Positions 5,711-56,055 of a stretch of DNA of 64,000 nucleotides are shown here, in pieces. The position numbers were made by a program, and so were the translations under genes. Position 1 is the first letter of the stretch; each line of letters begins with the position of its first letter. Source of the stretch: an uncultured Clostridia bacterium. GTDB taxonomy: Bacteria > Bacillota > Clostridia > TANB77 > UBA1234. Location of the stretch: contig CAKPAA010000007.1 of NCBI GenBank assembly GCA_934132775.1, positions 21,599 through 85,598 on the forward strand. Reading direction: 5' to 3'. The notes beneath the pieces are model-generated. The model worked only from the letters and a program-made list of their open reading frames with translations. It did not search any database and was not told the origin of the DNA.

Positions 5711-7198
5711 TTACCAGGCATACAAAGTTTTATCTTTTGGCTCTGGAAGTTTCTTCAAAGCTTCCGCTATCACTTCTCTATCATCAAAGTGATGTTTTTC
5801 ACCATTTATTTCTTGATATGTTTCATGACCTTTTCCTGCTACTAGAACTAAATCATTTTTTTCTGCTTGCTTTAACGCATATTCAATTGCTTTCTTTCTA
5901 TCAACTATAACTTTATACTTTCCACTTGTTTTTCTTATTCCAGCTTCAATTTGAGCAATTATATCTTCTGGCTTTTCTGACCTTGGGTTATCAGAAGTTA
6001 TAACAGTAAGACCAGCAATTTTTCCTGCGATTTCACCCATCATAGGTCTCTTGGCAGTGTCTCTGTCTCCACCACAGCCAAACACACAAATTATCTTTCC
6101 TTTTGTGTATACCTTTGAAGCTCTTAATATATTTTCCAAACTATCTGGTGTATGCGCATAATCTACCATAACAGTAAAGTTTCTTGTCGTTGGCACAATT
6201 TCAGACCTACCTGGTACCTTTACGTTTTCAAGTCCAGCAAGCACATCTTCAACACCTGCCCCAAGTCTTATTGAAGCACAAATTGCTGCAAGTGCATTAT
6301 AAACAGTAAATCTACCTGGTATATCAACCTTTATTCTTTGTATAACTCTATTGAAAGGCATCTTAAAGTCTGAATAGCTGTTAGTTATTATTATATCTCT
6401 TGCACACACATAAGGATTATTATCTATACCATACGTTGTGATAGGGCAAGTTGCCATTGCCATCAGCTTTTTGGCATACATATCATCAGCATTTACATAC
6501 CCCTCTTTTGCCATTGTAAACAGCTTTGCCTTTGCTGCTAAATAATTATCAAATGTTTTATGAAAGTCCAAATGATCTTGTGATAAGTTCGTATAAATGG
6601 CTATATCAAAAGTATTGCCATATACTCTATCCAAAGCTAATGAGTGTGAAGAAACTTCCATAACAACTACATCAACTTTTTCATCAGCCATTTCTCTAAA
6701 CATCTTTTGCAAATCTAAACTTTCTGGTGTAGTTCTTTGAGACTCAATAACCCTGTCTCCTAAGTAATTTGCAATAGTTCCAATTAGTCCAACTTTCTTA
6801 CCTGCTTTTTCTAGTATACTCTTAATCATATATGTTGTTGTTGTTTTTCCTTTTGTACCAGTTACACCAACTAATTTAAACTCTCTCGATGGATGGCCAT
6901 AATAGTTGCAAGCAGATAGTGCAAGTAATTTTCTTGTATCTTCTGCAATAATCACAGTAACACTAGTAGGAATTTTACTTACATCAAATTCGCCATCTTG
7001 AACTGCAATTACACTTGCACCTTTTTGCAAAGCCATCTCAACATATTCATGACCATTCGTTTTAAATCCAACAATTGCCACAAACATATCACCAGGCTCA
7101 ACAAGCCTTGAATCACACCTAATTTCCTTTACTTCCTCTTCAATGTTTCCTTGAAGTTTGAATCCATCGATTCTGTCTAAAATTTTTGATAATTTCAT
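5711..7198 (-). CDS. murE: UDP-N-acetylmuramoyl-L-alanyl-D-glutamate--2,6-diaminopimelate ligase
   Basis: Mur ligase P-loop GVTGTKGKTTT and the DNPR motif typical of meso-DAP-adding MurE. Confidence 0.9.
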   Translation of the reverse strand: MKLSKILDRIDGFKLQGNIEEEVKEIRCDSRLVEPGDMFVAIVGFKTNGHEYVEMALQKGASVIAVQDGEFDVSKIPTSVTVIIAEDTRKLLALSACNYYGHPSREFKLVGVTGTKGKTTTTYMIKSILEKAGKKVGLIGTIANYLGDRVIESQRTTPESLDLQKMFREMADEKVDVVVMEVSSHSLALDRVYGNTFDIAIYTNLSQDHLDFHKTFDNYLAAKAKLFTMAKEGYVNADDMYAKKLMAMATCPITTYGIDNNPYVCARDIIITNSYSDFKMPFNRVIQRIKVDIPGRFTVYNALAAICASIRLGAGVEDVLAGLENVKVPGRSEIVPTTRNFTVMVDYAHTPDSLENILRASKVYTKGKIICVFGCGGDRDTAKRPMMGEIAGKIAGLTVITSDNPRSEKPEDIIAQIEAGIRKTSGKYKVIVDRKKAIEYALKQAEKNDLVLVAGKGHETYQEINGEKHHFDDREVIAEALKKLPEPKDKTLYAW

Positions 7199-7286: not shown

Positions 7287-9464
7287 TTATTCAACGTCAA
7301 TGCCAACTGCTCTGAATTCAACTCTTACTAAGCTGCCTTGCTCCACACTTGTTCCAGCTGGTGGATCTTGAAGCACAGACATTCCACTTCCAGAAATCTT
7401 TATGTTTAAGTTTGCATCAGATAACTTCTTTGTTGCAGAAACTATGTCTAAGTTTTTAACATCTGGCACAATCGTATTGAATCTTGTATCATTTCCCTCA
7501 ACGTATAATTTTACTAATGACTTTTCAACTAATTTTTCGCCTGACACTGGCATTTGTGCTGTTACAATCTTATTCATATCAGATTCATCAACACTATATT
7601 TAAGTCCTGCATTGTTTAACATCCTTATTGCCTCGCCGACAGTTCTATTTGTCACATCAGGAACTTCAACTTTCTTAGTTTTATCTTCTGTTGTATAATC
7701 TTTCTTAACTTCAAGATATTCTAGAACCTCAGATAAAATATTTGAAACAACCGGTGCACATATTGCGCCACCTTGGTGTCCAAGTTTGCTCTTTGGATTA
7801 GCAATGGTCAACATTATTGCAACTTGTGGATCAGTCGCCGGAGCCAAGGCAACGAACGAAGCTGTGTAAGTTTTATTCGCTCCTCTCCCTTGCTCAGCAG
7901 TACTTGTTTTTCCTGCAACGTAGTAACCTTTTACTTGACCATTTCTACCAGTACCATTAGAAACAACGCTTGTCATCATATCCAAAACTGCATTTGCAGT
8001 TTCTTTTGAAAATACTTGTTTCTCTGCCACTGGCTCATTTTCTTGAACAACATTTCCATTTCTATCTAAAATTTTAGAAACAATTCTAGGTTTCATAAGT
8101 ATTCCATCATTTCCAAATACAGAAATTACATTAAGCATATTAAGCTGTGTCAAAGTAAAGCCTTGACCAAATGCAGCAGAAGCAATAGTTGAATCAGTTA
8201 CATTCGCGATTTGGTGAATAATTCCGTTTACTTCACCAGGTAAATCTATGCCCGTCTTTTTAGAAACGCCCAAAGCTGATAAATAGTCATAATATTTAAC
8301 CTTTCCAATTGTAAGTGCAATGCTCATAAAAACAGGGTTACAAGAGTTCATAAGACCTTGCCTCAAACTCTGCTTTCCGTGTGGATTATAATATCTCCAA
8401 CACTTCATATCCCAACCTTCAATTTTTAAATAACCATTACACAAAAACTTAACTGTATCAACATCTTTAACTAAACCTTCTTCAAGAGCAACAGCCGCTG
8501 TAACAGTTTTAAAAACAGAACCAGGTTCAAAAGTATCTGTTATAACTCTATTTCTCCATAAATTCTGTAATTCCTTTGTTTTTTCAGCGGATGATAAAGT
8601 GTCCCACTTACTCTTTAAAGCATCTGTCGTTGGTGTGAAAGGACTATTCGGATCATAAGTTGGTGCAGTTGCCATCGCAAGTATATCACCCGTCTTAGGG
8701 TTCATTATCGTGCAAGCTGCATAATCTGGATTATTGTCGCTAACAGCTTGATCCAAATATTTTTCAGTTATATACTGTATCATTTCATCAACTGTAAGAA
8801 CTAAGTTCAAACCATCTTCTGGTGGAATATACTTTTCATCATTTAAAGGAAGTTCATTTCCTATGGCATCAGTGCCAACAATTAGTTGCCCTTGAACGCC
8901 TTTAAGCACACTTTCGTACTGAGTTTCAATTCCTTCAAGACCTTGATTATCCGTTCCACAAAATCCTAACACATTCGCTAACAATTTACCATTAGGATAA
9001 TACCTTTTAGTATCTTCATATATATTTACACCTGTTATTTTTTCTTCTTTAATCCAAGCTCTCACTTGGTCTGTAACAGATTTATCTAACTTTTTAGCAA
9101 TAGTTTCATCTGCTGTATTCTTCTTAGTTTTAGCTAAAACAGTTTCATAGTCTAAATTCAAAATTTCAGATAAACCCTTTGCAGTTTTTTCTTTATTCTC
9201 TGCCTTAATATTCTTAGGCGTTATACTTATCGATTCAACGGTTATACTCTCCGCCAAGACCTCACCATTTCTATCATAAATAATTCCCCTCTTAGGGCTA
9301 ATCTTTCTATTCTTAGTTTGTTGTGCGTATGCCTCTTCTCTCATATCACTGCCTCTAACAACTTGCCAATAAAAAAGTCTACCTATAAGCACAAGAATCA
9401 ATGAAAAATATATAATCATTATAATCTTAATTCTACGTTTTGTCTTTATTTTAGCCTTTGCCAC
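7287..9464 (-). CDS. Class B penicillin-binding protein (SpoVD/PBP2B-like transpeptidase) with C-terminal PASTA domains
   Basis: N-terminal membrane anchor, transpeptidase SxxK/SxN/KTG(T/S) region and two C-terminal PASTA-like repeats, in dcw context. Confidence 0.88.
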   Translation of the reverse strand: MAKAKIKTKRRIKIIMIIYFSLILVLIGRLFYWQVVRGSDMREEAYAQQTKNRKISPKRGIIYDRNGEVLAESITVESISITPKNIKAENKEKTAKGLSEILNLDYETVLAKTKKNTADETIAKKLDKSVTDQVRAWIKEEKITGVNIYEDTKRYYPNGKLLANVLGFCGTDNQGLEGIETQYESVLKGVQGQLIVGTDAIGNELPLNDEKYIPPEDGLNLVLTVDEMIQYITEKYLDQAVSDNNPDYAACTIMNPKTGDILAMATAPTYDPNSPFTPTTDALKSKWDTLSSAEKTKELQNLWRNRVITDTFEPGSVFKTVTAAVALEEGLVKDVDTVKFLCNGYLKIEGWDMKCWRYYNPHGKQSLRQGLMNSCNPVFMSIALTIGKVKYYDYLSALGVSKKTGIDLPGEVNGIIHQIANVTDSTIASAAFGQGFTLTQLNMLNVISVFGNDGILMKPRIVSKILDRNGNVVQENEPVAEKQVFSKETANAVLDMMTSVVSNGTGRNGQVKGYYVAGKTSTAEQGRGANKTYTASFVALAPATDPQVAIMLTIANPKSKLGHQGGAICAPVVSNILSEVLEYLEVKKDYTTEDKTKKVEVPDVTNRTVGEAIRMLNNAGLKYSVDESDMNKIVTAQMPVSGEKLVEKSLVKLYVEGNDTRFNTIVPDVKNLDIVSATKKLSDANLNIKISGSGMSVLQDPPAGTSVEQGSLVRVEFRAVGIDVE

Positions 9465-9652
9465 ATACTCACCTCCAAAACATTCCGATACATATATATT
9501 ACAATATATAATTTAATATTACAACCACTGCAATCATTCTTATGAGTTAAAAACTAAAATTATAATATCTCCAACAAGCTAGCTCATAAATTTGTTATAG
9601 ATATATAAAAAGCACACAAGAAATTAAGACAACCTAATATTCCAGTGTGCAT

Positions 9653-10462
9653 CTAGTCTAATATATTTCTTATGTCGTTAATAAGCTTTTCCAAAAATGT
9701 TTTTTCTTCCTTTTCAATAACGACAGGAGTTGAAATCTTATCTTCTTTTCCCACAACAACTTTTTGTATTTGAGAATCCTTAGGTTTTTGCATACCCAAC
9801 TGATACTTTGCATAAGATTCAATATTCGATAAATCTGTTTGCGTTTGTATTTCAGATTCTATTTGTGCATTTGTTGTATTTATATTGTCTAATTTGCTTT
9901 TCATTCCATTAACCTTAGAAAATGACTCATTTATAAGTGATGACCTATAACATATCAAAAACAAAATTGAAAATGCAAAAAAGGCAATTGCCACATTTTT
10001 AAGTGGTGCTGATTTTTCTTTCGTTGCAACTTTCTTCTTTGGACTTGCAATAACCTCAGCGTGTTTCAATGACATTTCCTTTGGTTTCTGAATCTGTCTT
10101 TTAGAAACCATCGTTGGTATTTCTAAATTCTTTGATGCAGTCCTCTTTCTAGTAGTAGAAGTGGTATCTCTCGTAACCGCTCTTGTAGAAGTTCTAGTTA
10201 CGTTCCTAGTGGTAGCAGTCTTAACCTCAACCCTTTGAGAAGCTTTATTTCCTCTAACAGGCACATTTCTCGTTAATTGGCTTTGAGTGCTTTTTCTACT
10301 TGGCTGAGCTTGAACACTTCCTTTACTTGTTTGAGGCTGAGCAGTTCTTCTAACCGCTTGACTAGATGTTTTTGGTCTACCATTAGAAGTTCCAGCTTTT
10401 GCTGAACTTCTACGTCTATTGCCATATTCATAATAATCATAGTCATATTGAACTGCTGGCAT
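9653..10462 (-). CDS. ftsL: FtsL-like cell-division protein with a long disordered S/T/R-rich N-terminus
   Basis: Single transmembrane helix followed by a short coiled-coil. Sits between rsmH and the PBP gene as ftsL does in dcw clusters. Confidence 0.55.
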   Translation of the reverse strand: MPAVQYDYDYYEYGNRRRSSAKAGTSNGRPKTSSQAVRRTAQPQTSKGSVQAQPSRKSTQSQLTRNVPVRGNKASQRVEVKTATTRNVTRTSTRAVTRDTTSTTRKRTASKNLEIPTMVSKRQIQKPKEMSLKHAEVIASPKKKVATKEKSAPLKNVAIAFFAFSILFLICYRSSLINESFSKVNGMKSKLDNINTTNAQIESEIQTQTDLSNIESYAKYQLGMQKPKDSQIQKVVVGKEDKISTPVVIEKEEKTFLEKLINDIRNILD

Positions 10463-19535: not shown

Positions 19536-20159
19536 TTAGTATGTTAATCCAGCATTTGTTGCAGAATTGTCAAGAGGTCCATTTACTGAACTTACAAGAA
19601 CTACAGGAGTTGTAATATTTGGGAAAGTAATACTTGATGTATCTCCTGTCAAAGCTGCATAAGTAGTTTTATCTATAGCTAATGTATCATTTAGATAATA
19701 CTTATCTTCATATTTGTATGGAGGCCATACGAATACTTGACCATCATAAGTTACAGCATACTTAACTTCATAATTTGAAGCTGCTGGTGTATTAACTTTG
19801 ATTGTTGGTAATTTAATACCAATTGATTTTTCTGCTTTTGCTCCATCAATTATTGTGTATTGTGTTAATTGAGCTATTGGTGTAATGTCTCCACTTTGAG
19901 TTCCATCTTTACCTTCAGCTATTGTCTTGTAAGATTGTGCATCTGTAATTTCATTACCAATTGCTGCTTGATCACCTTTGAATTCTGTTGCAGATTTTTT
20001 GAAAGCATCTCTAACTTCACCAATGTTTGATACAAACTTAGAATAGTTTGCCTTTTCAATTGTTGATGTTGAAGAGTTGAATGCGATTGCTGCTAAGATA
20101 ATTACAACGATAATTGTAATTACAAGTGCTATTAAAGAAACACCTTTTTGATTTTTCAT
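19536..20159 (-). CDS. Pilin-like protein (prepilin-type N-terminus without Glu5), 207 aa
   Basis: N-terminus MKNQKG|VSLIALVITIIVVIILAAIAF is a class III signal-like hydrophobic segment. The first ~50 aa and the conserved block YTIID..IGIKLP..VNTP..VKYAVT..G.VF.WPP are shared with the 507-aa paralog at 36910..38433. Confidence 0.6.
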   Translation of the reverse strand: MKNQKGVSLIALVITIIVVIILAAIAFNSSTSTIEKANYSKFVSNIGEVRDAFKKSATEFKGDQAAIGNEITDAQSYKTIAEGKDGTQSGDITPIAQLTQYTIIDGAKAEKSIGIKLPTIKVNTPAASNYEVKYAVTYDGQVFVWPPYKYEDKYYLNDTLAIDKTTYAALTGDTSSITFPNITTPVVLVSSVNGPLDNSATNAGLTY

Positions 20160-20416: not shown

Positions 20417-21784
20417 TTATAGGTATGCATCGAACAAGAATGAACCCATGTATACTTCCATAATTGGTTTTAATACTAATATTACGAATGCTATCATAAC
20501 TATACCCATGATAGACATACTTATTTGTGGTAATATCTTTATTGTTCTTTCTATTGTTATGTTTATTTCATCTTCCATGTACTCAACAATTTTGTTTATC
20601 ATATCGGTTATATCTGTTTCCATACCTATTCTAAGCATCTCTAATGCCATTCTTGGCATATTAGGCAAAGTTTCAAATGGTTCAACCCATGAATCACCTT
20701 GCTGTAAATTATCTGTCGCTGATTCAATAACAGATAAAACCACGTAGTTACTTACTGTTCCTTTACTTACTTCAAGAGCGTCTTGCAATTTAGCATTGTT
20801 AGCTAAGTTTAATTGCATAGCTTCAAAAAACTTCTGTAATTGAAGTCTTAATATAAGTCCTCCAAATACAGGCAATTTTAATTTAAACATATCCCATTGA
20901 TACTTTCCATGAATAGTAGACTTCCAAAGAATAAATGCTGTTACCAAGCCCGCTACCACTGCAACACCAATATACCAATATTTTATTACAAGCTTTATAA
21001 AATTTGACGCAGCCATAGTTGCTGCTGGAATTTGGTTTGTTAATCCCATGCTAGCATATAGGTCTTCCAATATTGGCACACCAACCATAATACCTACAAC
21101 TGTTCCAACTAGCATAAGCACTGCTTGTAGTAAAGGTCCAACTAAAGCTTTTTTCAATGCTTTTGTTCTTTTTGTACTTGTTTCTAAGTAATTCATTGCT
21201 TGAAACAACGCATTTGTAAGTGAACCTGAAAGTTCACCAACCTTGATTGTCTCAATATAAATATCTGGGAATATTTTATTGTAATATTCTAGTGTAGAAT
21301 ATATATATTCACCAGCTTCAACACCGTTTAGAATATCTTCAATAACACTTCTCATAGCTGGGTTATCTGTATTTTCTAATAATGTTGCCAATGCTCTTAT
21401 GTTAGTAAAATTTGCCCTTTTTAACAAGTATAAACTCTGTGTAAATGAAAAAACATCCTTTTTAGTTACTCTATATAAAAATGATAAATCGAGTTCAAAT
21501 GGAAGTTCTATTTCCATCTGCAAACCAGTTTTCTCTTTCTTTTTCTGATTTTCTATCATTTTTTGCTTTGCATATTTACTAACGGATGCACTTGAAGAGG
21601 TTATCGCATTCCTTTTTGCTTTCTTGTTGCTAAGTCCACCTAGTGCTTTACTTTGTTGAACTGATACAGGTTGTAGTCCATTATTTTTTAGTCTTTCCAA
21701 AACACTTTCACGTGATTCATCATCTATGGTGCCATTAACAACTTTACCATTTGACAGAACTGCTCTATATCTGAATTTAGCCAT
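20417..21784 (-). CDS. pilC: Type IV pilus platform protein (PilC/GspF family)
   Basis: PilC-like N-terminus (MAKFRYRA..G..V.G) and two T2SS-F domains in a polytopic membrane protein. Confidence 0.88.
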   Translation of the reverse strand: MAKFRYRAVLSNGKVVNGTIDDESRESVLERLKNNGLQPVSVQQSKALGGLSNKKAKRNAITSSSASVSKYAKQKMIENQKKKEKTGLQMEIELPFELDLSFLYRVTKKDVFSFTQSLYLLKRANFTNIRALATLLENTDNPAMRSVIEDILNGVEAGEYIYSTLEYYNKIFPDIYIETIKVGELSGSLTNALFQAMNYLETSTKRTKALKKALVGPLLQAVLMLVGTVVGIMVGVPILEDLYASMGLTNQIPAATMAASNFIKLVIKYWYIGVAVVAGLVTAFILWKSTIHGKYQWDMFKLKLPVFGGLILRLQLQKFFEAMQLNLANNAKLQDALEVSKGTVSNYVVLSVIESATDNLQQGDSWVEPFETLPNMPRMALEMLRIGMETDITDMINKIVEYMEDEINITIERTIKILPQISMSIMGIVMIAFVILVLKPIMEVYMGSFLFDAYL

Positions 21785-21822: not shown

Positions 21823-23472
21823 TTAATATGCTAATTTCTTCTTTACCTCACTTATTACTGTACGTCCATCTAGTACTTTATTAAAAGCATCTACAACAAG
21901 AGGTCTATATCCAGTTTCATAGGCTTTCTTTCTTATGTCGGTTATTGTGCCATCTGATATTATCAAATTTTTTATTTCTTCATCTACAATTAACATTTCA
22001 TTTGCAGCAATTCTTCCATAAAAGCCAGTGTAGTTGCATTTCTCGCATCCTACTGGTTCATATGTATGTTTACCTGTTAGGTCAAATTCATAATTATATC
22101 TTGTACCTATCTTTTTAAATTCATTTACTTCATCTTCTGTGAACTCTCTTTCTCTGCAACAATCTTTACATATTCTTCTTACAAGTCTTTGTGCTATTGA
22201 TGTTGCTAAAACGCTTCCTATATCGTAACTTGATATTCCAAGTTTTCTAAGTCTTGTGATAACCTCTATACTATCAACTGTGTGAATTGTTGACAACACA
22301 AAGTGACCTGTTTGACCTGCCTGTATTGCAATCTCAGCTGTTTCTTTATCTCTTATTTCTCCAAGTAGTATGATGTCTGGGTCTTGTCTTAAAATTGTTC
22401 TTAGTGAGTCAGCAAATGTAACCCTCTTATTTACTTCAACTTGATTTATTCCTGGGATTCTTATTTCAACTGGGTCTTCAACTGTTGTTATATTTATTTC
22501 GGGTCTATTCAACAAAGACAATGCACTATACAAAGTTGTTGTTTTACCTTCACCAGTTGGGGCCGCAATAACTGCAATACAGTTTCTCTTATTAAAGCAT
22601 TTATTCATAATTGTTTCTTGATCTGGATATCCCAACTCTTCCAAACCAGAAATTGTTGACTCTTTCTTCATAAGTCTTAATACAAACTTTTCACCGTATA
22701 TATTCATCTGTGAAGATACACGAATATTGTAGTCTGGATATGCTGTTATTCTACCATCTTGTGAAAGCTGTATTTCTTGGTGCATATTTGATATTGATTT
22801 TAATCTACCAATAACCTGCGCTTGCTTAGATTTTTCTATCGTAGCAATTATAAGTAACTCACCATCAATTCTGAACCTAACTCTTACTTTGTCATCCATT
22901 GGTTCGAAGTGAATATCACTCGCTCTTTTTACCATTGCAGATCTAATTATATTATCTATTAGCTGTGCTACGTCTTTTCCATAGGAATCAAAATTTTTCT
23001 CTTCTTCTGATTTCTTTTCTATGTCTCTAACTATATCATCTATGTATGATTCAAAAGTAACATAAACTTCCATTGAAAGACCTTTACTAAGCAATATTAA
23101 ACGTATCATCTTCTGTAAATCCTTATCTGATGGATCAGCAAAAGCAACTTTTATTCTATTCTCATTTAATTCAAAAGGTAATACCTTATGCTGTTTTACT
23201 ATATCCATTGACAAATACTTAGAAAAGTCAAAATTAAACATACCAGGCTCAAGTTTTATCCCCTTTACTCCAATACCTTCTGCAATTGTATTTAATAGCT
23301 CTTGTTCATCACATACTCCAAGTTTATGAAAAGCTTCTCCTAATTTCGTTCCTTTGTGTTCTCTTTGATATACAATTGCTTTATCTATATCAGACTCATT
23401 TATCAAGCCTTTTCTTATAAGCATAACACCTAATGGTGCTTTTTTCATTGTATTATTATCGAAGATTGCCAT
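21823..23472 (-). CDS. pilB: Type IV pilus assembly ATPase (PilB/GspE family)
   Basis: Walker A APTGEGKTTT, Asp/Walker B DPDIILLGEIRD, His box GHFVLSTIHT and a C-terminal tetracysteine. Confidence 0.92.
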   Translation of the reverse strand: MAIFDNNTMKKAPLGVMLIRKGLINESDIDKAIVYQREHKGTKLGEAFHKLGVCDEQELLNTIAEGIGVKGIKLEPGMFNFDFSKYLSMDIVKQHKVLPFELNENRIKVAFADPSDKDLQKMIRLILLSKGLSMEVYVTFESYIDDIVRDIEKKSEEEKNFDSYGKDVAQLIDNIIRSAMVKRASDIHFEPMDDKVRVRFRIDGELLIIATIEKSKQAQVIGRLKSISNMHQEIQLSQDGRITAYPDYNIRVSSQMNIYGEKFVLRLMKKESTISGLEELGYPDQETIMNKCFNKRNCIAVIAAPTGEGKTTTLYSALSLLNRPEINITTVEDPVEIRIPGINQVEVNKRVTFADSLRTILRQDPDIILLGEIRDKETAEIAIQAGQTGHFVLSTIHTVDSIEVITRLRKLGISSYDIGSVLATSIAQRLVRRICKDCCREREFTEDEVNEFKKIGTRYNYEFDLTGKHTYEPVGCEKCNYTGFYGRIAANEMLIVDEEIKNLIISDGTITDIRKKAYETGYRPLVVDAFNKVLDGRTVISEVKKKLAY

Positions 23473-24733: not shown

Positions 24734-25540
24734 TTAAGCTATATTATTATTTATAAGAGTAGCAATTGGCATAAGATAATTAGTAAATATTATTGCAATT
24801 ACACTACCTATACTTAAAAAATATCCAAATGGTATTTCTTTATATTTTTTTATAACCGTTATTAGACTTCCAACAATAACAGCCAGCACAATTGAAATAA
24901 CTTGCATTCCAAAGCCAAGGAACAATCCTATCATCGCTATATATTTAATATCTCCAAAGCCGAATGGAAGTTTTTCATTTTTTAGCATCTTTTTAATAAT
25001 CACATCTATTAATATCAAAATCAATGGTATAACTAAAAATCCTAATAAATTATATAGCATACTTTCACTTAAAAATATTGCTTTATATAGTCCATTTGCC
25101 AAACCTATGAATATTCCATATAGCAACGCACCATCATGTATTTCAAGCTTTTCTTTATCAATTCCGCCTATTATGTATAATGCACACATAAACAAATAAA
25201 CAAAAAAAAGATTTATAAATTCATATATCGAACTATACACATCTATTTTAGCAAGTAATGCTATTAAAACAAATGTAAGTCCTGAAAAGATTTCTAATAG
25301 CACATATCTACTTCTTATTTTTTCTTTGCAATATCTGCACTTTCCACCTAAAAAAATGTAACTAAATATAGGTATCAAATCCCAAAAATTTAATCTATGA
25401 TTGCAAGTTGTGCAGTGTGATCTTTGATGTGTTATATCTTCTTTACGTGGCAATCTATATACTGCAAGTGAAAAGAAGCTTCCAAAAACAGAGCCACATA
25501 TAAATATTGCTAAGTATAATATAATGTTCATATCTTTCAT
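24734..25540 (-). CDS. pilD: Prepilin peptidase (A24 family, PilD)
   Basis: N-terminal Cys-rich zinc-binding region (HCTTCNHRL..DLIPIFSY..GGKCRYCKEKI) and a polytopic membrane body. Confidence 0.88.
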   Translation of the reverse strand: MKDMNIILYLAIFICGSVFGSFFSLAVYRLPRKEDITHQRSHCTTCNHRLNFWDLIPIFSYIFLGGKCRYCKEKIRSRYVLLEIFSGLTFVLIALLAKIDVYSSIYEFINLFFVYLFMCALYIIGGIDKEKLEIHDGALLYGIFIGLANGLYKAIFLSESMLYNLLGFLVIPLILILIDVIIKKMLKNEKLPFGFGDIKYIAMIGLFLGFGMQVISIVLAVIVGSLITVIKKYKEIPFGYFLSIGSVIAIIFTNYLMPIATLINNNIA

Positions 25541-36763: not shown

Positions 36764-36810
36764 AACCCACACAAACCTTAACTTAATTTAGCTTGTGTGG
36801 GTTTATTTTT
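36764..36810. terminator. Bidirectional rho-independent terminator between convergent genes
   Basis: Perfect 11-bp stem aacccacacaa/ttgtgtgggtt flanked by T-tracts on both strands. Confidence 0.55.
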
Positions 36811-36909
36811 GAAAAATAAATTACAATAAAATATTTAATCTTTCAAGTTATTTTTTATCTTTTAGCATTATATTAAAAATTTTTACACTAATTTTGATAA
36901 TATATCAAT

Positions 36910-38433
36910 TTATTTAATATTCCAAGCAGTTGATGCAGATGAACCATCAGTTGAAGAATTTGAAATATCTAATAAATTAGCTGATATAGAGATTACAGGA
37001 CGAAGACCATACGAAGGCGCGCCCACGTAGCCAGTCGAAATGACTGAGTAGTAGCCGTAGACATAGGTAGTATAAGCCGTGCGTAAGCCATAGTAGGCAA
37101 AGGCACCCTCAGAGGCCAAGCCGACATACGGCGAAGCGAGCCAGCCTCTATTGTCTACATCTCCTTTTAGTATATCGCCAATCTTCGCATTGGCACTACT
37201 CGGATTATAACCATAATATGTCCTTGTTATTAAAACTGGTTCATCTTTTGACTTTAATTCAATATAATCAGTTTCACTTGTTGATTTATGTGTTACTCCA
37301 TTCTTGTCATCCCAGTTATAGAATCTTGGGTACTCTACTCCACTTGCTAAACTTGCAGTGTGCTTTTTAGCTGTGTATGTGTGTCCTCCTGCTACTACAT
37401 CTTTCAAATCACTATCCGCCGTATCAGCTGGATACCAAGCCCATCTTGTTAGATTTGTTGATGGAATATAATCACAAGCCTTATTCAAATCTTCTATTGT
37501 CATACTTCTTGCTGTTATTCCCTTATCTGCATTTGAATATAACTTCTCACATAATCTATGCAATTCGTTTGCACCATATAAATATCCTGCTGCACCCTTA
37601 ATAGTTACTTTGTTTACGTACCCATCTGTTGTTAGCATAACTTTTCCTGTTTCATTATCGATACTCAAAATTCTCCACTTTGCTGTTGCATCTGTTGAAA
37701 GAGTTTCTTTTGTGTAACCGGTTTTTCTTGGATCTGTTTCAACATTCTGCACCGCTGTTGGTACGTAGTTCACATAGTCTCCTACTTTTATTTTACTTGT
37801 TATTTCTTCAAACTCTTTCTTAGACAAGCCATCGTCCAAAAGTTCTCTATTTTCAAGGTTACTACTCTCATTTATTTGCAACTTAAAAGTTGTACCTGCA
37901 ACTGTTATATCAACATCTCCTGAACTAGAAACAAGTGAACTATCTACAAATTCCTTGTCTCTTATGTTATATGCATTCTCGCTTGGAAATGGTGGCCAAA
38001 TAAACACCTTACCATTTTTAGTTACAGCATATTTAACATCAACATTAGTCTCACTTGGAGTATTCACTCTCATTACTGGTAACTTAATTCCAATATCTGC
38101 ACTCTTATCAATTATTGTATAATCAGGTGTCCTGCTTTCTACCACAAAATCACTATCAGTCCTACCACCCTTAGCTACATAATTAAACACTTGTCCATCA
38201 GTAATCTGAGAACCCTTCGCAAGCATTGCACCTTTAACCTCTATCATCTTCTCATTTATAGCCTGTTCAACTTCACTAATATTAGACACAAACTTAGAAT
38301 AATTCGCCTTTCCAATAGTGCCCGTTGAACTATTAAAAGCAATAGCTGCTAAAATAATTACTACTATAATCGTAATAACCAATGCAATAAGAGAAATACC
38401 TCTCTCACTATTTCTTAATTCAAAACATTTCAT
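36910..38433 (-). CDS. Pilin-like protein with a large C-terminal C-type-lectin/FGE-like domain carrying a hypervariable-region-like patch (507 aa)
   Basis: N-terminus ERG|ISLIALVITIIVVIILAAIAF is paralogous to the 19536..20159 product. C-terminus NRGW...YYGLR...YGLRPV resembles the RGGSW...GFRxV framing of diversity-generating-retroelement target domains. Confidence 0.6.
   Translation of the reverse strand: MKCFELRNSERGISLIALVITIIVVIILAAIAFNSSTGTIGKANYSKFVSNISEVEQAINEKMIEVKGAMLAKGSQITDGQVFNYVAKGGRTDSDFVVESRTPDYTIIDKSADIGIKLPVMRVNTPSETNVDVKYAVTKNGKVFIWPPFPSENAYNIRDKEFVDSSLVSSSGDVDITVAGTTFKLQINESSNLENRELLDDGLSKKEFEEITSKIKVGDYVNYVPTAVQNVETDPRKTGYTKETLSTDATAKWRILSIDNETGKVMLTTDGYVNKVTIKGAAGYLYGANELHRLCEKLYSNADKGITARSMTIEDLNKACDYIPSTNLTRWAWYPADTADSDLKDVVAGGHTYTAKKHTASLASGVEYPRFYNWDDKNGVTHKSTSETDYIELKSKDEPVLITRTYYGYNPSSANAKIGDILKGDVDNRGWLASPYVGLASEGAFAYYGLRTAYTTYVYGYYSVISTGYVGAPSYGLRPVISISANLLDISNSSTDGSSASTAWNIK
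36995..37200 (-). other. GC-rich, adenine-depleted, NNC-codon-biased patch resembling a diversity-generating-retroelement variable region
   Basis: Roughly 200 nt with host-atypical codons (GGC, GCC, TAC, GTC, CGC, TCG, CCG), including the GC-only run GTGGGCGCGCC, embedded in an otherwise AT-rich gene. Confidence 0.4.
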
Positions 38434-38932
38434 ACGTAAATCAACCTCATTTCTTCATTTTATTTTTTATACTCTCAACACTATCTCAAACAAAACTCAC
38501 TTAAATCCAGCCACTATGTTCAAAGGAGTAAAAGTACATAGAATAAATTTTTTCGGCTCGGTATGGGTAGGTAGGAGAAAAAATTTTTCTATTACTTTTA
38601 CGACGCTACTATGCCAAAACAAACTTAAATTGGTGCTTTTATAAATCATAGTAACTAATCAGAACAAACTTAAAATAACTCTTTCATAAATTGTAGCATC
38701 TTCTCAAAGCAAAGCATATTTTTCACACGCCAAAAAGACTAACCAAAACTTAGCCATCTCATTCAAGTTTCACACAAAACTCAAATAAATAGCAAAATTT
38801 CAGTTAGTCTCCTAACTATCCTCAACATAATTTATAAAATCCAAAGCAAAATAGCAAACACTTGCAACACTTACTGCACAAACATCAGCCACACCGAAAG
38901 CACTCTCATAAGAAACTGCTTTCGCATTTCTT

Positions 38933-38998
38933 TTATTTAAAAATTGGCTTGTGTGTGTGTGTGTGTACAGCCCCAACGGTTTCAAGTACCTTGTTCAT
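38933..38998 (-). CDS. Small ORF with RBS GGAGG containing an (AC)8 tract on the coding strand; 21 codons now, 62 codons if the tract had 9 units
   Basis: ATG 6 nt after AGGAGG, 40 nt downstream of the HD-GYP gene. Current product is MNKVLETVGAVHTHTHKPIFK. Confidence 0.25.
   Translation of the reverse strand: MNKVLETVGAVHTHTHKPIFK
38951..38966. repeat. (GT)8 dinucleotide microsatellite
   Basis: gtgtgtgtgtgtgtgt read directly. Confidence 0.95.
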
Positions 38999-39038
38999 TT
39001 TTCTCCTCCTGTTTCTAAAATTTAATTACTAAAAACAT

Positions 39039-39941
39039 CTATATTCTCAACTGTTTTATCAATTTTTGAATTTCTTCTTGCTCACTTTCATATAATTTCA
39101 TCTTCTCAATTTCTTTTTCCAATGCTCTCTGCTTAATTATAAGCAAATTAGCATTTGTACTCATATCATATCCTGGTGCCAGTTCAAATCTTTTCAACTT
39201 TCTTTCTAATTTTTTAGTTAAACCTTGATCATATATTTGTTTGTATATGCCTTCTAATTCGTGTAATATCTCTAAATTATTTCTATACTGCATTACATTC
39301 TTTTCGTGTGTATTACGTTCCTCTGTCACTTTATCATACACAACCATTAACAAATACACCAAATATTCACCAGACATTTTTTTGTTCTTCACATCTTGAA
39401 CCATCATTTTTAATGCATCACTTATTTTGTAACCATCTTTATATTGCCTCTTTTGTGTCAATGCATCATATACATCAGCAACTTTTATTATCTGTGCCTC
39501 TTTCGGAATTTCATCTCCCTTTAATCCGTCTGGATATCCTGTACCGTCCATATTTTCGTGATGTGCTCTTACTATTGGTGCTAAGTCTTTAAAGTTTTTA
39601 TATTCCATACATATTTCATATCCGTATATCGTATGTTTTTTCATTATTTCAAATTCTTCATCCGTTAGCCTTGAAGTTTTTTGTAGTATCTCAGGTGGTA
39701 TTTTTATTTTTCCCACGTCGTGCAAATATGCAGCAAGAACACATTTTTTTAATTCTTCGTATGGCATCCCCATTCTTTGACACATAGCAGTTGTCATCTT
39801 GGCAACACCTTGTACGTGTGCATCTGTAAATATATCTAGTCCCTTTAACACTGATATTTCCAAACTAATCTCATTTGATAACTCTGCCTCATTTATTCTT
39901 GTGCTTCCTAGTATATCTAACGGTTTAAAACGTTTTTTCAT
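39039..39941 (-). CDS. HD-GYP domain cyclic-dinucleotide phosphodiesterase
   Basis: HD motif (LHDVGK) and HHENMDGTGYP motif. Start is at the Met preceded by GGAGG; the track ORF extends to 40004. Confidence 0.85.
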   Translation of the reverse strand: MKKRFKPLDILGSTRINEAELSNEISLEISVLKGLDIFTDAHVQGVAKMTTAMCQRMGMPYEELKKCVLAAYLHDVGKIKIPPEILQKTSRLTDEEFEIMKKHTIYGYEICMEYKNFKDLAPIVRAHHENMDGTGYPDGLKGDEIPKEAQIIKVADVYDALTQKRQYKDGYKISDALKMMVQDVKNKKMSGEYLVYLLMVVYDKVTEERNTHEKNVMQYRNNLEILHELEGIYKQIYDQGLTKKLERKLKRFELAPGYDMSTNANLLIIKQRALEKEIEKMKLYESEQEEIQKLIKQLRI

Positions 39942-39958
39942 CTTTTGTATCCTCCTAA

Positions 39959-40759
39959 TTATATTGCTTGATAGGTTCCATTCTTTAAATTTATTTCTAT
40001 CCACTTTTTATTTATTTTTATAATTAGCCTGTATTCTAATAGTGATAAATTTCCTTCTAAATGCGCTATGTAGTACATTATCTCTTTTGAAAATTTATCT
40101 AAATCCGTTATATCTTCGAAATATTCTGGACTTGTTATTTCTGCGAATATAATATTTATATCATATTTTTTATAATTATCCAATAGCTTTCTTATTTTCT
40201 CAAATATCTTGTTTTTTATATCTATATTATACTCTTCTTCAAGTTCTGGATTTATCTTAGGTGTAAGAATTGTTCTTTTACCATCATTGTATATTTCAAC
40301 TTTATCACTGGCTTTTTTATATTCAATATATCCCTCTATATTTTCTTTTTCTAACTTATATTCTTCCAAGTCGTGTGAAAGCTTTTCAACTAGCCAGTCA
40401 TATCCAACATATATTTTTGTAACTTCTATTCCTATGCTCTTTCCTTTTCGTTCTAACACAAAGTCTGGGCATTCCGTTTTCGTTATCTTACCAGAACGTA
40501 TTTTAAATTTATTTAATAATTTAAAAACAGTATTAAATTCATTTATTTCTTTTTGGAGTTGTTTATTTCTCTCTAGTTCATTTTCAACCATTTGATTCCA
40601 AATTTTTATATCTTTTTGAGTTGCCTTAACTTTTGTCATTTTTAACGTGAATGTGTTTAAATTTAGCACCATATCGTCCATATGGACTTTTATATATGCA
40701 TCTTTAATTTCACCTGAACTTTTATGAGAATTCATTACATCATATATAGGATTTTCCAT
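39959..40759 (-). CDS. Hypothetical protein (266 aa) with a weak PD-(D/E)xK-like segment
   Basis: ORF with the RBS GGGAG. Segment ECPDFVLERKGKSIGIEVTK loosely resembles a PD...ExK nuclease core. Ends at the RBS of the HD-GYP gene. Confidence 0.5.
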   Translation of the reverse strand: MENPIYDVMNSHKSSGEIKDAYIKVHMDDMVLNLNTFTLKMTKVKATQKDIKIWNQMVENELERNKQLQKEINEFNTVFKLLNKFKIRSGKITKTECPDFVLERKGKSIGIEVTKIYVGYDWLVEKLSHDLEEYKLEKENIEGYIEYKKASDKVEIYNDGKRTILTPKINPELEEEYNIDIKNKIFEKIRKLLDNYKKYDINIIFAEITSPEYFEDITDLDKFSKEIMYYIAHLEGNLSLLEYRLIIKINKKWIEINLKNGTYQAI

Positions 40760-55909: not shown

Positions 55910-56055
55910 TACTACACCTCCTTTTAATAAAAAATCTGACATACTACCGAAGTAAATATGCCAGATCATAAATCCGTTCATTTACCTCGGTAGGAATCTT
56001 TTACATACTTAATGTATAACCCACTGTCTTTGGCTATATATAAATAAATTAAACT
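55910..56055 (-). promoter_or_regulatory. L10-leader-type structured 5' UTR of rplJ-rplL
   Basis: Hairpin ccgaggtaaatgaacggatttatgatctggcatatttacttcgg lies between rplA and rplJ, as in Firmicute L10 autoregulatory leaders. Confidence 0.4.

Follow-up and report, generated by a model that had tools for sequence, protein, structure and literature searches.

Does a gene for a cyclic di-GMP (c-di-GMP) phosphodiesterase belong to the same functional unit as the gene for a pilin-like surface protein that follows it on the same strand? The question is raised by a locus in a stretch of 64,000 nucleotides (nt) from an uncultured Clostridia bacterium (contig CAKPAA010000007.1, positions 21,599 to 85,598), which we call the window and whose own numbering we use throughout. 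Four open reading frames (ORFs) lie on its minus strand, at the positions given in a preliminary description made by reading the sequence: one for a protein of 266 amino acids (aa), an HD-GYP gene, a small repeat-containing ORF, and a gene for a 507-aa pilin-like protein. That description proposed that all four form one module tying c-di-GMP turnover to the surface protein. We arrive at a different partition of the locus. With a probability of roughly 0.7, positions 36764-39010 (minus strand) are one unit, functionally separate from the abutting 266-aa/HD-GYP operon, in which a repeat-switched leader precedes a pilin-lectin gene of the kind diversified by diversity-generating retroelements (DGRs).

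Leader ORF, repeat and hairpin at this and other loci

The small ORF starts at an ATG (position 38998) behind a strong ribosome-binding site (RBS), and exactly 40 nt separate the TAG of the HD-GYP gene from this RBS (AGGAGGAG) and ATG. In the phase found here it stops after 21 codons, at 38933-38935, which is 121 nt upstream of a long hairpin and 500 nt upstream of the ATG of the 507-aa gene. The preliminary description had noted its RBS and its repeat; the 57-aa ORF in the mechanically made list (38812-38985, TTG start) is the +1 frame of this leader ORF; one extra CA unit would join the 57-aa frame to the leader ATG. The repeat itself, (CA)8, is the sole CA/TG tract of at least five units in the 64 kb, and the conserved 21-mer in front of it occurs once as against 0 expected occurrences.

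A look-up with the exact HD-GYP protein found ten further samples with the same arrangement. Including L002 and the window there are 12 samples of the locus in all, with an HD-GYP protein that is identical in 11 of them and 99.7% identical in L002. The number of CA units (n) is 8 in the window, L179 and L182; 9 in L183; 10 in L177, L181 and L002; 11 in L176 and L184; 12 in L180; 13 in L178; and 14 in L175. The flanking genes are 99-100% identical while n varies, and several contigs end inside the (CA)n tract. At the level of sequence, this variation is the signature of slipped-strand variation. Of the values of n in the 12 samples, just 9 and 12 bring the ATG into the frame of the long ORF, and the predicted full leader product of 62-64 aa was called in L180, L183 and the second cassette of L002 (L002b).

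The long frame ends at the foot of the hairpin, which is followed directly by a run of five U and which contradicts the statement in the preliminary description that no terminator could be recognised in the stretch from the small ORF to the pilin-like gene. The predicted folding energy of this hairpin is -39.9 kcal/mol (z = -8.0), and 0 of 200 shuffled sequences were as stable. It is kept in four window-type alleles: 13 pairs have changed on one side with pairing intact, and one of the alleles has 2 broken pairs. A simple terminator scanner failed to pick up the 37-bp hairpin. Sites resembling a consensus promoter were no commoner than in shuffled sequences, in a scan that is uninformative in such AT-rich DNA. 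The leader module of about 300 nt between the U-run and the pilin-lectin gene is also present in L004a and L002b, is absent in L002a, and matches no Rfam family; it includes a hairpin with a C-rich loop (CUCCUACCUACCCAUACCGAGCCG).

The preliminary description had recognised no c-di-GMP riboswitch, and Rfam scans agree: neither c-di-GMP-I nor c-di-GMP-II was found at gathering scores in the whole window, or at up to E = 10 over positions 38300-39150. The sole Rfam matches above noise were to plant microRNA models, on the long hairpin. An invertible promoter in the 600-nt leader was considered as well and was rejected; the inverted repeats there are short (10-19 nt) and imperfect, and none is conserved.

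We propose that these parts form a switch. When n is not a multiple of 3, translation of the leader stops 2-5 codons past the repeat; when it is, translation can run for 41-45 further codons to the foot of the hairpin. By analogy with a known system, a ribosome at this ON stop would unzip the lower stem, so that the terminator could not form and RNA polymerase would read into the pilin-lectin gene, whereas in the OFF frames the terminator would form and the gene would be silent or expressed at a low level. Slippage in the (CA)n tract would then turn the pilin-lectin gene on and off stochastically. In this genome (n = 8) the gene is predicted to be OFF, with its cassette fed by read-through from the 266-aa/HD-GYP operon, and at n = 9 or n = 12 the ribosome would be brought to the UAG at the stem foot and allow read-through. 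The gene under this putative control encodes a pilin-like N-terminal domain and a C-type-lectin-like domain whose variable region is of the DGR-rewritten kind, and its paralogues exchange segments.

Table 1. Positions of the features discussed, in window coordinates, and of one further RNA element.
Feature	Position	Strand	Remarks
266-aa ORF	39959-40759	minus	Upstream partner of HD-GYP; outside the switch
HD-GYP gene	39039-39941	minus	Stand-alone, 300 aa from the ATG; Pfam HD_5 3e-38, HD 1e-24
RBS of leader ORF	39003-39010	minus	AGGAGGAG; abutted by the 3' end of HD-GYP
Leader ORF as read here, OFF phase	38933-38998	minus	MNKVLETVGAVHTHTHKPIFK (21 aa), then TAA
(CA)8 slippage tract	38950-38965	minus	Inside the leader ORF
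ON-frame continuation	38812-38949	minus	SQFLNKRNAK...INYVEDS; TAG at 38812-38814; reached only if n is a multiple of 3
Putative attenuator/terminator hairpin	~38737-38811	minus	~37 bp; ON-frame TAG at its 5' foot
U5 tract	38732-38736	minus	UCUUUUUGG; directly past the hairpin
Leader module, ~300 nt	38434-38731	minus	With the RBS of the gene, GAGG at ~38444-38447
507-aa pilin-lectin gene	36910-38433	minus	Prepilin-like N-terminus RG/ISLIALVITIIVV
Variable region, DGR-type, 150 nt	36994-37143	minus	Within the lectin-like domain
Terminator-like hairpin past the pilin-lectin gene	36764-36804	minus	AAACCCACACAAGC...GTTTGTGTGGGTT, then a T-rich tail; by sequence reading
pilD	24734-25540		
pilB	21823-23472		
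pilC	20417-21784		
207-aa pilin gene	19536-20159	minus	At the end of the type IV pilus operon; homologous to the N-domain of the pilin-lectin protein
Ribosomal protein L10 leader	55920-56051	minus	Upstream of the rplJ region; Rfam RF00557, 50.4 bits; ordinary

The 507-aa protein has many homologues, several to a genome, nearly all of them from human-gut metagenomes and metagenome-assembled genomes of uncultured Clostridia. Ahead of the paralogues we found the same element as in the window: an RBS, then ATG AAC AAG nCA CTT GAA ACC GTT GrG GCT GTA, then (CA)n. The encoded peptide begins MNKxLETVxAV (MNKVLETVGAV in the window). This cassette was seen at more than 25 loci, with n between 6 and 18, and paralogues elsewhere carry it in unrelated neighbourhoods that have no HD-GYP gene–for example, after glmS/glmM in L004 and after spoIIE in L189–and L002 carries it twice. 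It was absent from the viral contigs searched. Across the cassette types examined, translation in either wrong frame ends 2-5 codons past the repeat. The right frame runs for 21-45 further codons, and in most types its stop lies within a strong hairpin or just a few nucleotides ahead of it, a pattern that L040 and L037 follow less well. The hairpin sequences are unrelated between types, and the best hairpin is followed by a tail of TTTT(T)G in 10 of 12 distinct short-ORF cassettes. The peptides encoded after the repeat are unrelated too (SQFLNKRNAK..., RHFLTEEKEN..., SILNNEIIKF..., GDLKNKKIKY...), so conservation between types is limited to the first 11 codons and the His-Thr run, as fits a leader whose translation matters and whose product does not.

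This pattern bears on the alternative that the small ORF encodes a functional, phase-variable protein of 62-64 aa, such as a pilus accessory factor or a regulator, and that the hairpin is simply its terminator. The strong RBS and the full-length product predicted wherever n is a multiple of 3 would suit such a protein, but the divergence of the peptide past its first 11 residues and His-Thr run, its lack of any Pfam match, and the fact that the same 5' end is merely a prepilin leader peptide in the fused forms described below make this explanation highly improbable.

Most cassettes have a promoter of their own: in 12 of 16 distinct cassettes other than the window's, a promoter-like sequence (TTGAAA/TTGACT-N16-17-(TG)nTAAAAT) lies 64-80 nt upstream of the ATG, and in L001 the -10 element reads TAGAAT. 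The cassettes of the window and L002a have no promoter-like sequence upstream. In the window the cassette starts at the RBS, and the 3' end of HD-GYP takes the place of the usual promoter. Because its own promoter is missing here, the leader ORF is most likely transcribed from the 266-aa/HD-GYP operon; functionally it belongs to the pilin-like gene and not to HD-GYP. The cotranscription suggested in the preliminary description is thus probable as far as the leader ORF, and the hairpin separates the pilin-like gene from it. In two other cassettes the distance from the U-run to the next start codon is just 27 nt (L002a) and 31 nt (L042), which leaves no room for a promoter, so the downstream genes there would be transcribable only through the hairpin.

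The genes behind the cassette are not all close paralogues of the 507-aa gene. It also precedes other pilin-like genes (L037, L040) and, with n = 15 and in the ON phase, stands directly ahead of a gene for a SipW-type signal peptidase I (L042:5490-6047, minus strand), past which lie genes for small proteins with N-terminal hydrophobic segments. Gating of this SipW operon would mean that the switch is not restricted to pilin genes. In L001, L016 and L029 and in the proteins P0065 and P0078, the 5' end of the cassette and its repeat are fused in frame to a prepilin leader (MNKTLETVEAVHTHTHTHTTHFLRDKKG/VSLIALV), and these fused forms are simply a case of translational phase variation as in Neisseria opa. 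The attenuator form probably evolved from a 5' gene fragment, because what the window's leader ORF encodes after the repeat (SQFLNKRNAK) bears a resemblance to the prepilin leader in the fused forms (THFLRDNKG).

The same resemblance could be taken further, to say that the small ORF is only the decaying 5' fragment of a once phase-variable prepilin gene, that the hairpin ends the HD-GYP operon, that the promoter of the pilin-lectin gene lies in the 300-nt leader, and that (CA)n is neutral. The locus is clearly recombinogenic, the start codon has been lost in L175 and L185, and the long leader could hide a promoter. We nevertheless consider this history unlikely. In AT-rich DNA the ON frame has stayed open over 41-45 codons in diverged alleles, one of which has an in-frame deletion of 12 nt; the ON stop sits at the hairpin across unrelated hairpin families (less well in L040 and L037); L002a and L042 have no space for a separate promoter; and the cassette also precedes an operon that is not a pilin operon.

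Two elements of other kinds were seen near cassettes. A group II intron (5' GTGCG, with a reverse-transcriptase ORF) lies directly past the (CA)6 of one cassette (L044:178-2208). A palindrome, GTAGCGGAGCACAGYGTGCTCCATGAA, occurs as five tandem copies about 115 nt apart in L001 (5400-5950) and also in the leaders of L008, L027 and L189; in L001, L016, L041 and L043 it is found a few tens of nucleotides upstream of the -35 element. The palindrome could serve as an operator or be a repetitive extragenic palindromic (REP)-like element.

The HD-GYP gene and its neighbours

The 266-aa and HD-GYP genes are a closely spaced pair, in which the TAA of the first abuts TTAGGAGGA, the RBS of the second, whose ATG is at 39941. 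The HD-GYP protein carries the motif HHENMDGTGYP (HHExxDGxGYP type) together with an HD_5 domain, and by domain and motif it is an HD-GYP phosphodiesterase, with predicted enzyme activity. The 266-aa protein is 100% identical in L002 and has no Pfam or NCBIfam family match; by eye only, a stretch of it (CPDF...IEVTK) resembles the PD-(D/E)XK nuclease motif. The pair, with a divergent htrA gene, is kept in relatives whose HD-GYP proteins are 88, 69 and 67% identical to that of the window, and the 266-aa ORF precedes HD-GYP in L045-L054. Judged by this gene order, 266-aa/HD-GYP is a real conserved two-gene unit, and to that extent the proposed module stands.

The gene downstream of HD-GYP, in contrast, differs each time. 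It is Sua5 in the 88%-identical relatives (six contexts shown), a convergent radical-SAM gene in the 69%-identical relative, and a gene for an unrelated 904-aa protein, past a terminator, in the 67%-identical relative. The window species has the pilin-like unit as an insertion that parts HD-GYP from the radical-SAM gene. On this comparison, HD-GYP is a neighbour of the pilin-like gene and not a conserved partner, and the junction between them is species-specific, at a recombination hot spot, rather than part of a conserved module.

Coupling of c-di-GMP turnover to the surface protein through a single module of all four ORFs is therefore quite improbable. The ORFs do share a strand and are tightly spaced (the spacings given in the preliminary description are correct), the arrangement is kept in 12 of 12 samples of the species, and transcription of a cassette that is promoterless here probably enters from the HD-GYP operon. 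However, neither the sister species nor the more distant relatives have the adjacency, although 266-aa/HD-GYP persists in them; paralogues elsewhere have the cassette and no HD-GYP gene; the small ORF is parted from the pilin-like gene by a terminator hairpin; no c-di-GMP riboswitch was found; and the cassette is portable and normally brings its own promoter. The preliminary description had itself named terminators between the genes and an unconserved neighbourhood as observations that would speak against it, and both were found for the link between HD-GYP and the pilin-like gene.

The pilin-lectin gene, its variable region and recombination

In the 507-aa protein, aa 9-166 form a pilin domain and aa ~215-507 a C-type-lectin-like domain. 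The N-terminus of the protein, MKCFELRNSERG/ISLIALVITIIVVIILAAIAF, consists of a short basic leader with Gly as its last residue and then a hydrophobic helix about 20 residues long. In the AlphaFold model (predicted local distance difference test score, pLDDT, of 84.8, and above 90 from residue ~215) there are helices at residues 15-34 and 43-72. A Foldseek search of the PDB with the C-terminal half gave nothing, and a contig look-up with the exact 507-aa protein gave no match. As the preliminary description had suggested, the protein is pilin-like: it is 53% identical over 163 aa to the 207-aa pilin of the type IV pilus operon, which ends about 7.6 kb away (not about 9 kb, as had been stated). 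Both proteins have Gly at position -1 and Ala, not the canonical Glu, at mature position +5. The 507-aa protein has no Pfam match and scores 17 bits (E = 0.004) with an NCBIfam prepilin model whose cut-off is 138, and the operon pilin scores 18.7 bits with N_methyl, under the cut-off of 21.2. Because of the Ala at +5 and these methylation-motif scores below the thresholds, we call the 507-aa protein pilin-like rather than a proven pilin.

The C-type-lectin-like fold carries a variable region (VR) with 55% GC and 13% A, compared to 37% GC and 35% A in the whole gene. Sequence entropy in the family peaks at residues 430-476, and the amino acids K, E, Q, M and W make up 7.6% of the variable columns of the VR and 23% elsewhere, a scarcity that is expected from AAY codons. 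A full DGR lies beside relatives of the gene in L189-L193, where the order is cassette, gene for a 505-aa family member, MutS_I-like gene, bAvd-like gene, template repeat (TR) and reverse transcriptase gene. In L189 the TR and the VR are identical at 130 of 155 positions, and 23 of the 25 mismatches are at TR adenines (p = 5e-12). The TRs are near-identical across samples, and the adjacent VRs differ almost only at positions of TR adenines.

Parts of such an element are also found at the locus itself. In L176, which represents the same locus as the window, MutS_I-like and bAvd genes (6434-6903) lie directly past the orthologous gene. Over nt 121-1200 the window and L176 genes are identical but for 2 bases, and 3' of nt 1200 they differ mostly at codon positions 1-2 of the VR (AAY-type doublets), and in a 3' tail. 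The L175 and L178 alleles at this locus, and L008, have AT-rich regions unlike the VRs. A comparison of the VR scaffold with viral contigs gave only chance 14-mer matches. The comparisons strongly indicate that the 150-nt VR of the window copy is a DGR-type target.

The DGR in L189 spans 8001-10221, with a MutS_I-like protein of 145 aa, a bAvd-like protein of 124 aa, the TR at L189:8901-9055, and an RVT_1 reverse transcriptase. The latter is called as two overlapping ORFs in 5 of 5 samples (L189-L193), and it may be frameshifted or mis-called.

The locus also recombines. The pilin-lectin gene of the window is a mosaic in which stretches with 98-100% identity to L002 gene 1, to L002 gene 2 and to the L004 genes alternate, and its leader combines parts of both L002 cassettes. 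The neighbouring housekeeping genes are 99-100% identical, whereas the pilin-lectin genes are just 87-89% identical. There are at least three forms of the locus: with one gene (the window and most samples), with two genes (L002), and with one gene plus DGR accessory genes (L176). In the two-gene form an Rpn-like PD-(D/E)XK gene lies between the paralogues. Genes of this PD-(D/E)XK_2 type (Rpn-like, 'transposase'; Pfam 2.8e-41) are found between or beside paralogues at L002:8195-9127 and L001:7797-8708, and could promote recombination at the locus.

Several points weigh against the repeat-switched, DGR-type unit that we favour. The antitermination step is inferred from the arrangement of the parts and from a single precedent, in a genus that is unrelated. 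The hairpin has no compensatory double changes among the window-type alleles, its U-run is just five U long, and its stem is far longer than that of a typical intrinsic terminator. An independent promoter could lie in the leader of about 300 nt that separates the terminator from the gene; there is a weak match to the promoter consensus at 38489-38462, and some paralogues (L002b, L004b) have a separate promoter-like module. The repeat numbers are taken from metagenome consensus assemblies, and in L175 and L185 (both at ~3945) the leader start codon is ATA instead of ATG, which may make these locked-OFF alleles. Finally, neither BLAST searches with the VR nor a motif scan of all ORFs found a TR or a reverse transcriptase in the 64-kb window, and the VR of the window differs from that of L177 at one base.

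Taken together, the members of this multi-copy adhesin family appear to be varied at three levels: on/off switching, hypermutation of the binding site, and mosaic recombination. There is an even chance, in our estimate, that one portable cassette (promoter, MNKxLETVxAV leader, (CA)n and terminator) serves a clade of uncultured Clostridia of the human gut as a general stochastic switch for pilin/C-type-lectin adhesins and other surface operons (sipW), with binding sites that are rewritten by DGRs and recombined. If so, a three-layer system of variation (on/off, hypermutation and mosaicism) would act on a single pilus-displayed lectin, repeat-driven leader-peptide attenuation would have arisen independently and be widespread in abundant uncultured gut Clostridia, and the layered variation would point to strong, changing selection on the binding partners, be they host glycans, other microbes or phages. 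There are practical consequences as well: gene callers mis-start or split cassette genes ('MRLYTHTHT...') and assemblies break at the cassette. The switch is short and self-contained, and is thus testable with simple reporters.

Comparison with known systems

The principle of the switch is already known from Streptococcus gallolyticus; the locus described here has another repeat and another type of pilus. In the pil1 and pil3 loci of S. gallolyticus, how far a leader peptide extends depends on GCAGA repeats (Danne et al. 2014, PMC3894217). A leader stop at least 28 nt before the stem-loop gives low expression, a stop beside or within the stem-loop gives high expression, and deletion of the terminator locks expression ON (PMC3894217). 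In the literature searched we found no other dissected case of repeat-driven leader-peptide attenuation. The likeness is close: both systems have a short leader ORF with an RBS, a repeat unit whose length is not a multiple of 3, repeat numbers that differ between isolates, and a stem-loop terminator in front of pilus genes, with the stop codon of the leader lying, depending on the frame, either a long way before the stem-loop or at or inside it, and the same ribosome-mediated antitermination is proposed for both. The two would be functional analogues, with no sequence homology. The unit is CA (2 nt) here and GCAGA (5 nt) there, the leader peptide MNKVLETVGAV differs, and the genes gated here are type-IV-pilin-like, whereas those of S. 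gallolyticus encode sortase-assembled pili. Here one of the three frames reaches the terminator and the other two stop at once. The clostridial cassette is also multi-copy and portable (pilin paralogues, SipW operon) and occurs in in-frame fusions, and its mechanism is proposed from sequence, whereas that of S. gallolyticus was shown experimentally.

In the Neisseria genes opa (CTCTT) and pilC (poly-G), the repeat tracts are in the regions coding for signal peptides. As there, a repeat in a leader peptide would frameshift each copy of a multi-copy surface family independently, which fits the fused genes of L001, L016, L029, P0065 and P0078. Unlike in opa and pilC, the repeat of the window is in a separate upstream ORF, so that control would be transcriptional and not translational, and the organisms and proteins are unrelated.

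The lectin-like domain resembles the DGR targets Mtd, TvpA and TaqVP in having a C-type-lectin-like fold with the VR near the C-terminus, and the mismatches to the TR in the relatives of the window gene are adenine-specific, with avd-like and reverse transcriptase genes present. As in the DGR-diversified type V pilus adhesins of Bacteroides (10.1101/2024.11.15.621889), the targeted protein is an adhesin associated with a pilus, in a bacterium of the gut. In PMC11661182, G-type pilin domains that hold a VR appear only in a list of 'scarcely represented' domains. The pilin-lectin genes differ from all of these targets in their type-IV-pilin fusion scaffold in Clostridia, in the ~30 codons that follow the VR, in the simple sequence repeat switch on each copy, and, for the window copy, in having no TR or reverse transcriptase within the 64 kb.

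Among clostridial pili, pilA1 of Clostridioides difficile is under the control of a c-di-GMP-II riboswitch. Like pilA1, the gene in the window is a clostridial type IV pilin gene (or pilin-like gene) behind a long regulatory 5' leader with a terminator at its end; unlike pilA1, it has no c-di-GMP aptamer, and a frameshift-prone leader ORF takes the place of the sensor. With the sensor replaced in this way, the switch would be stochastic rather than responsive to a signal.

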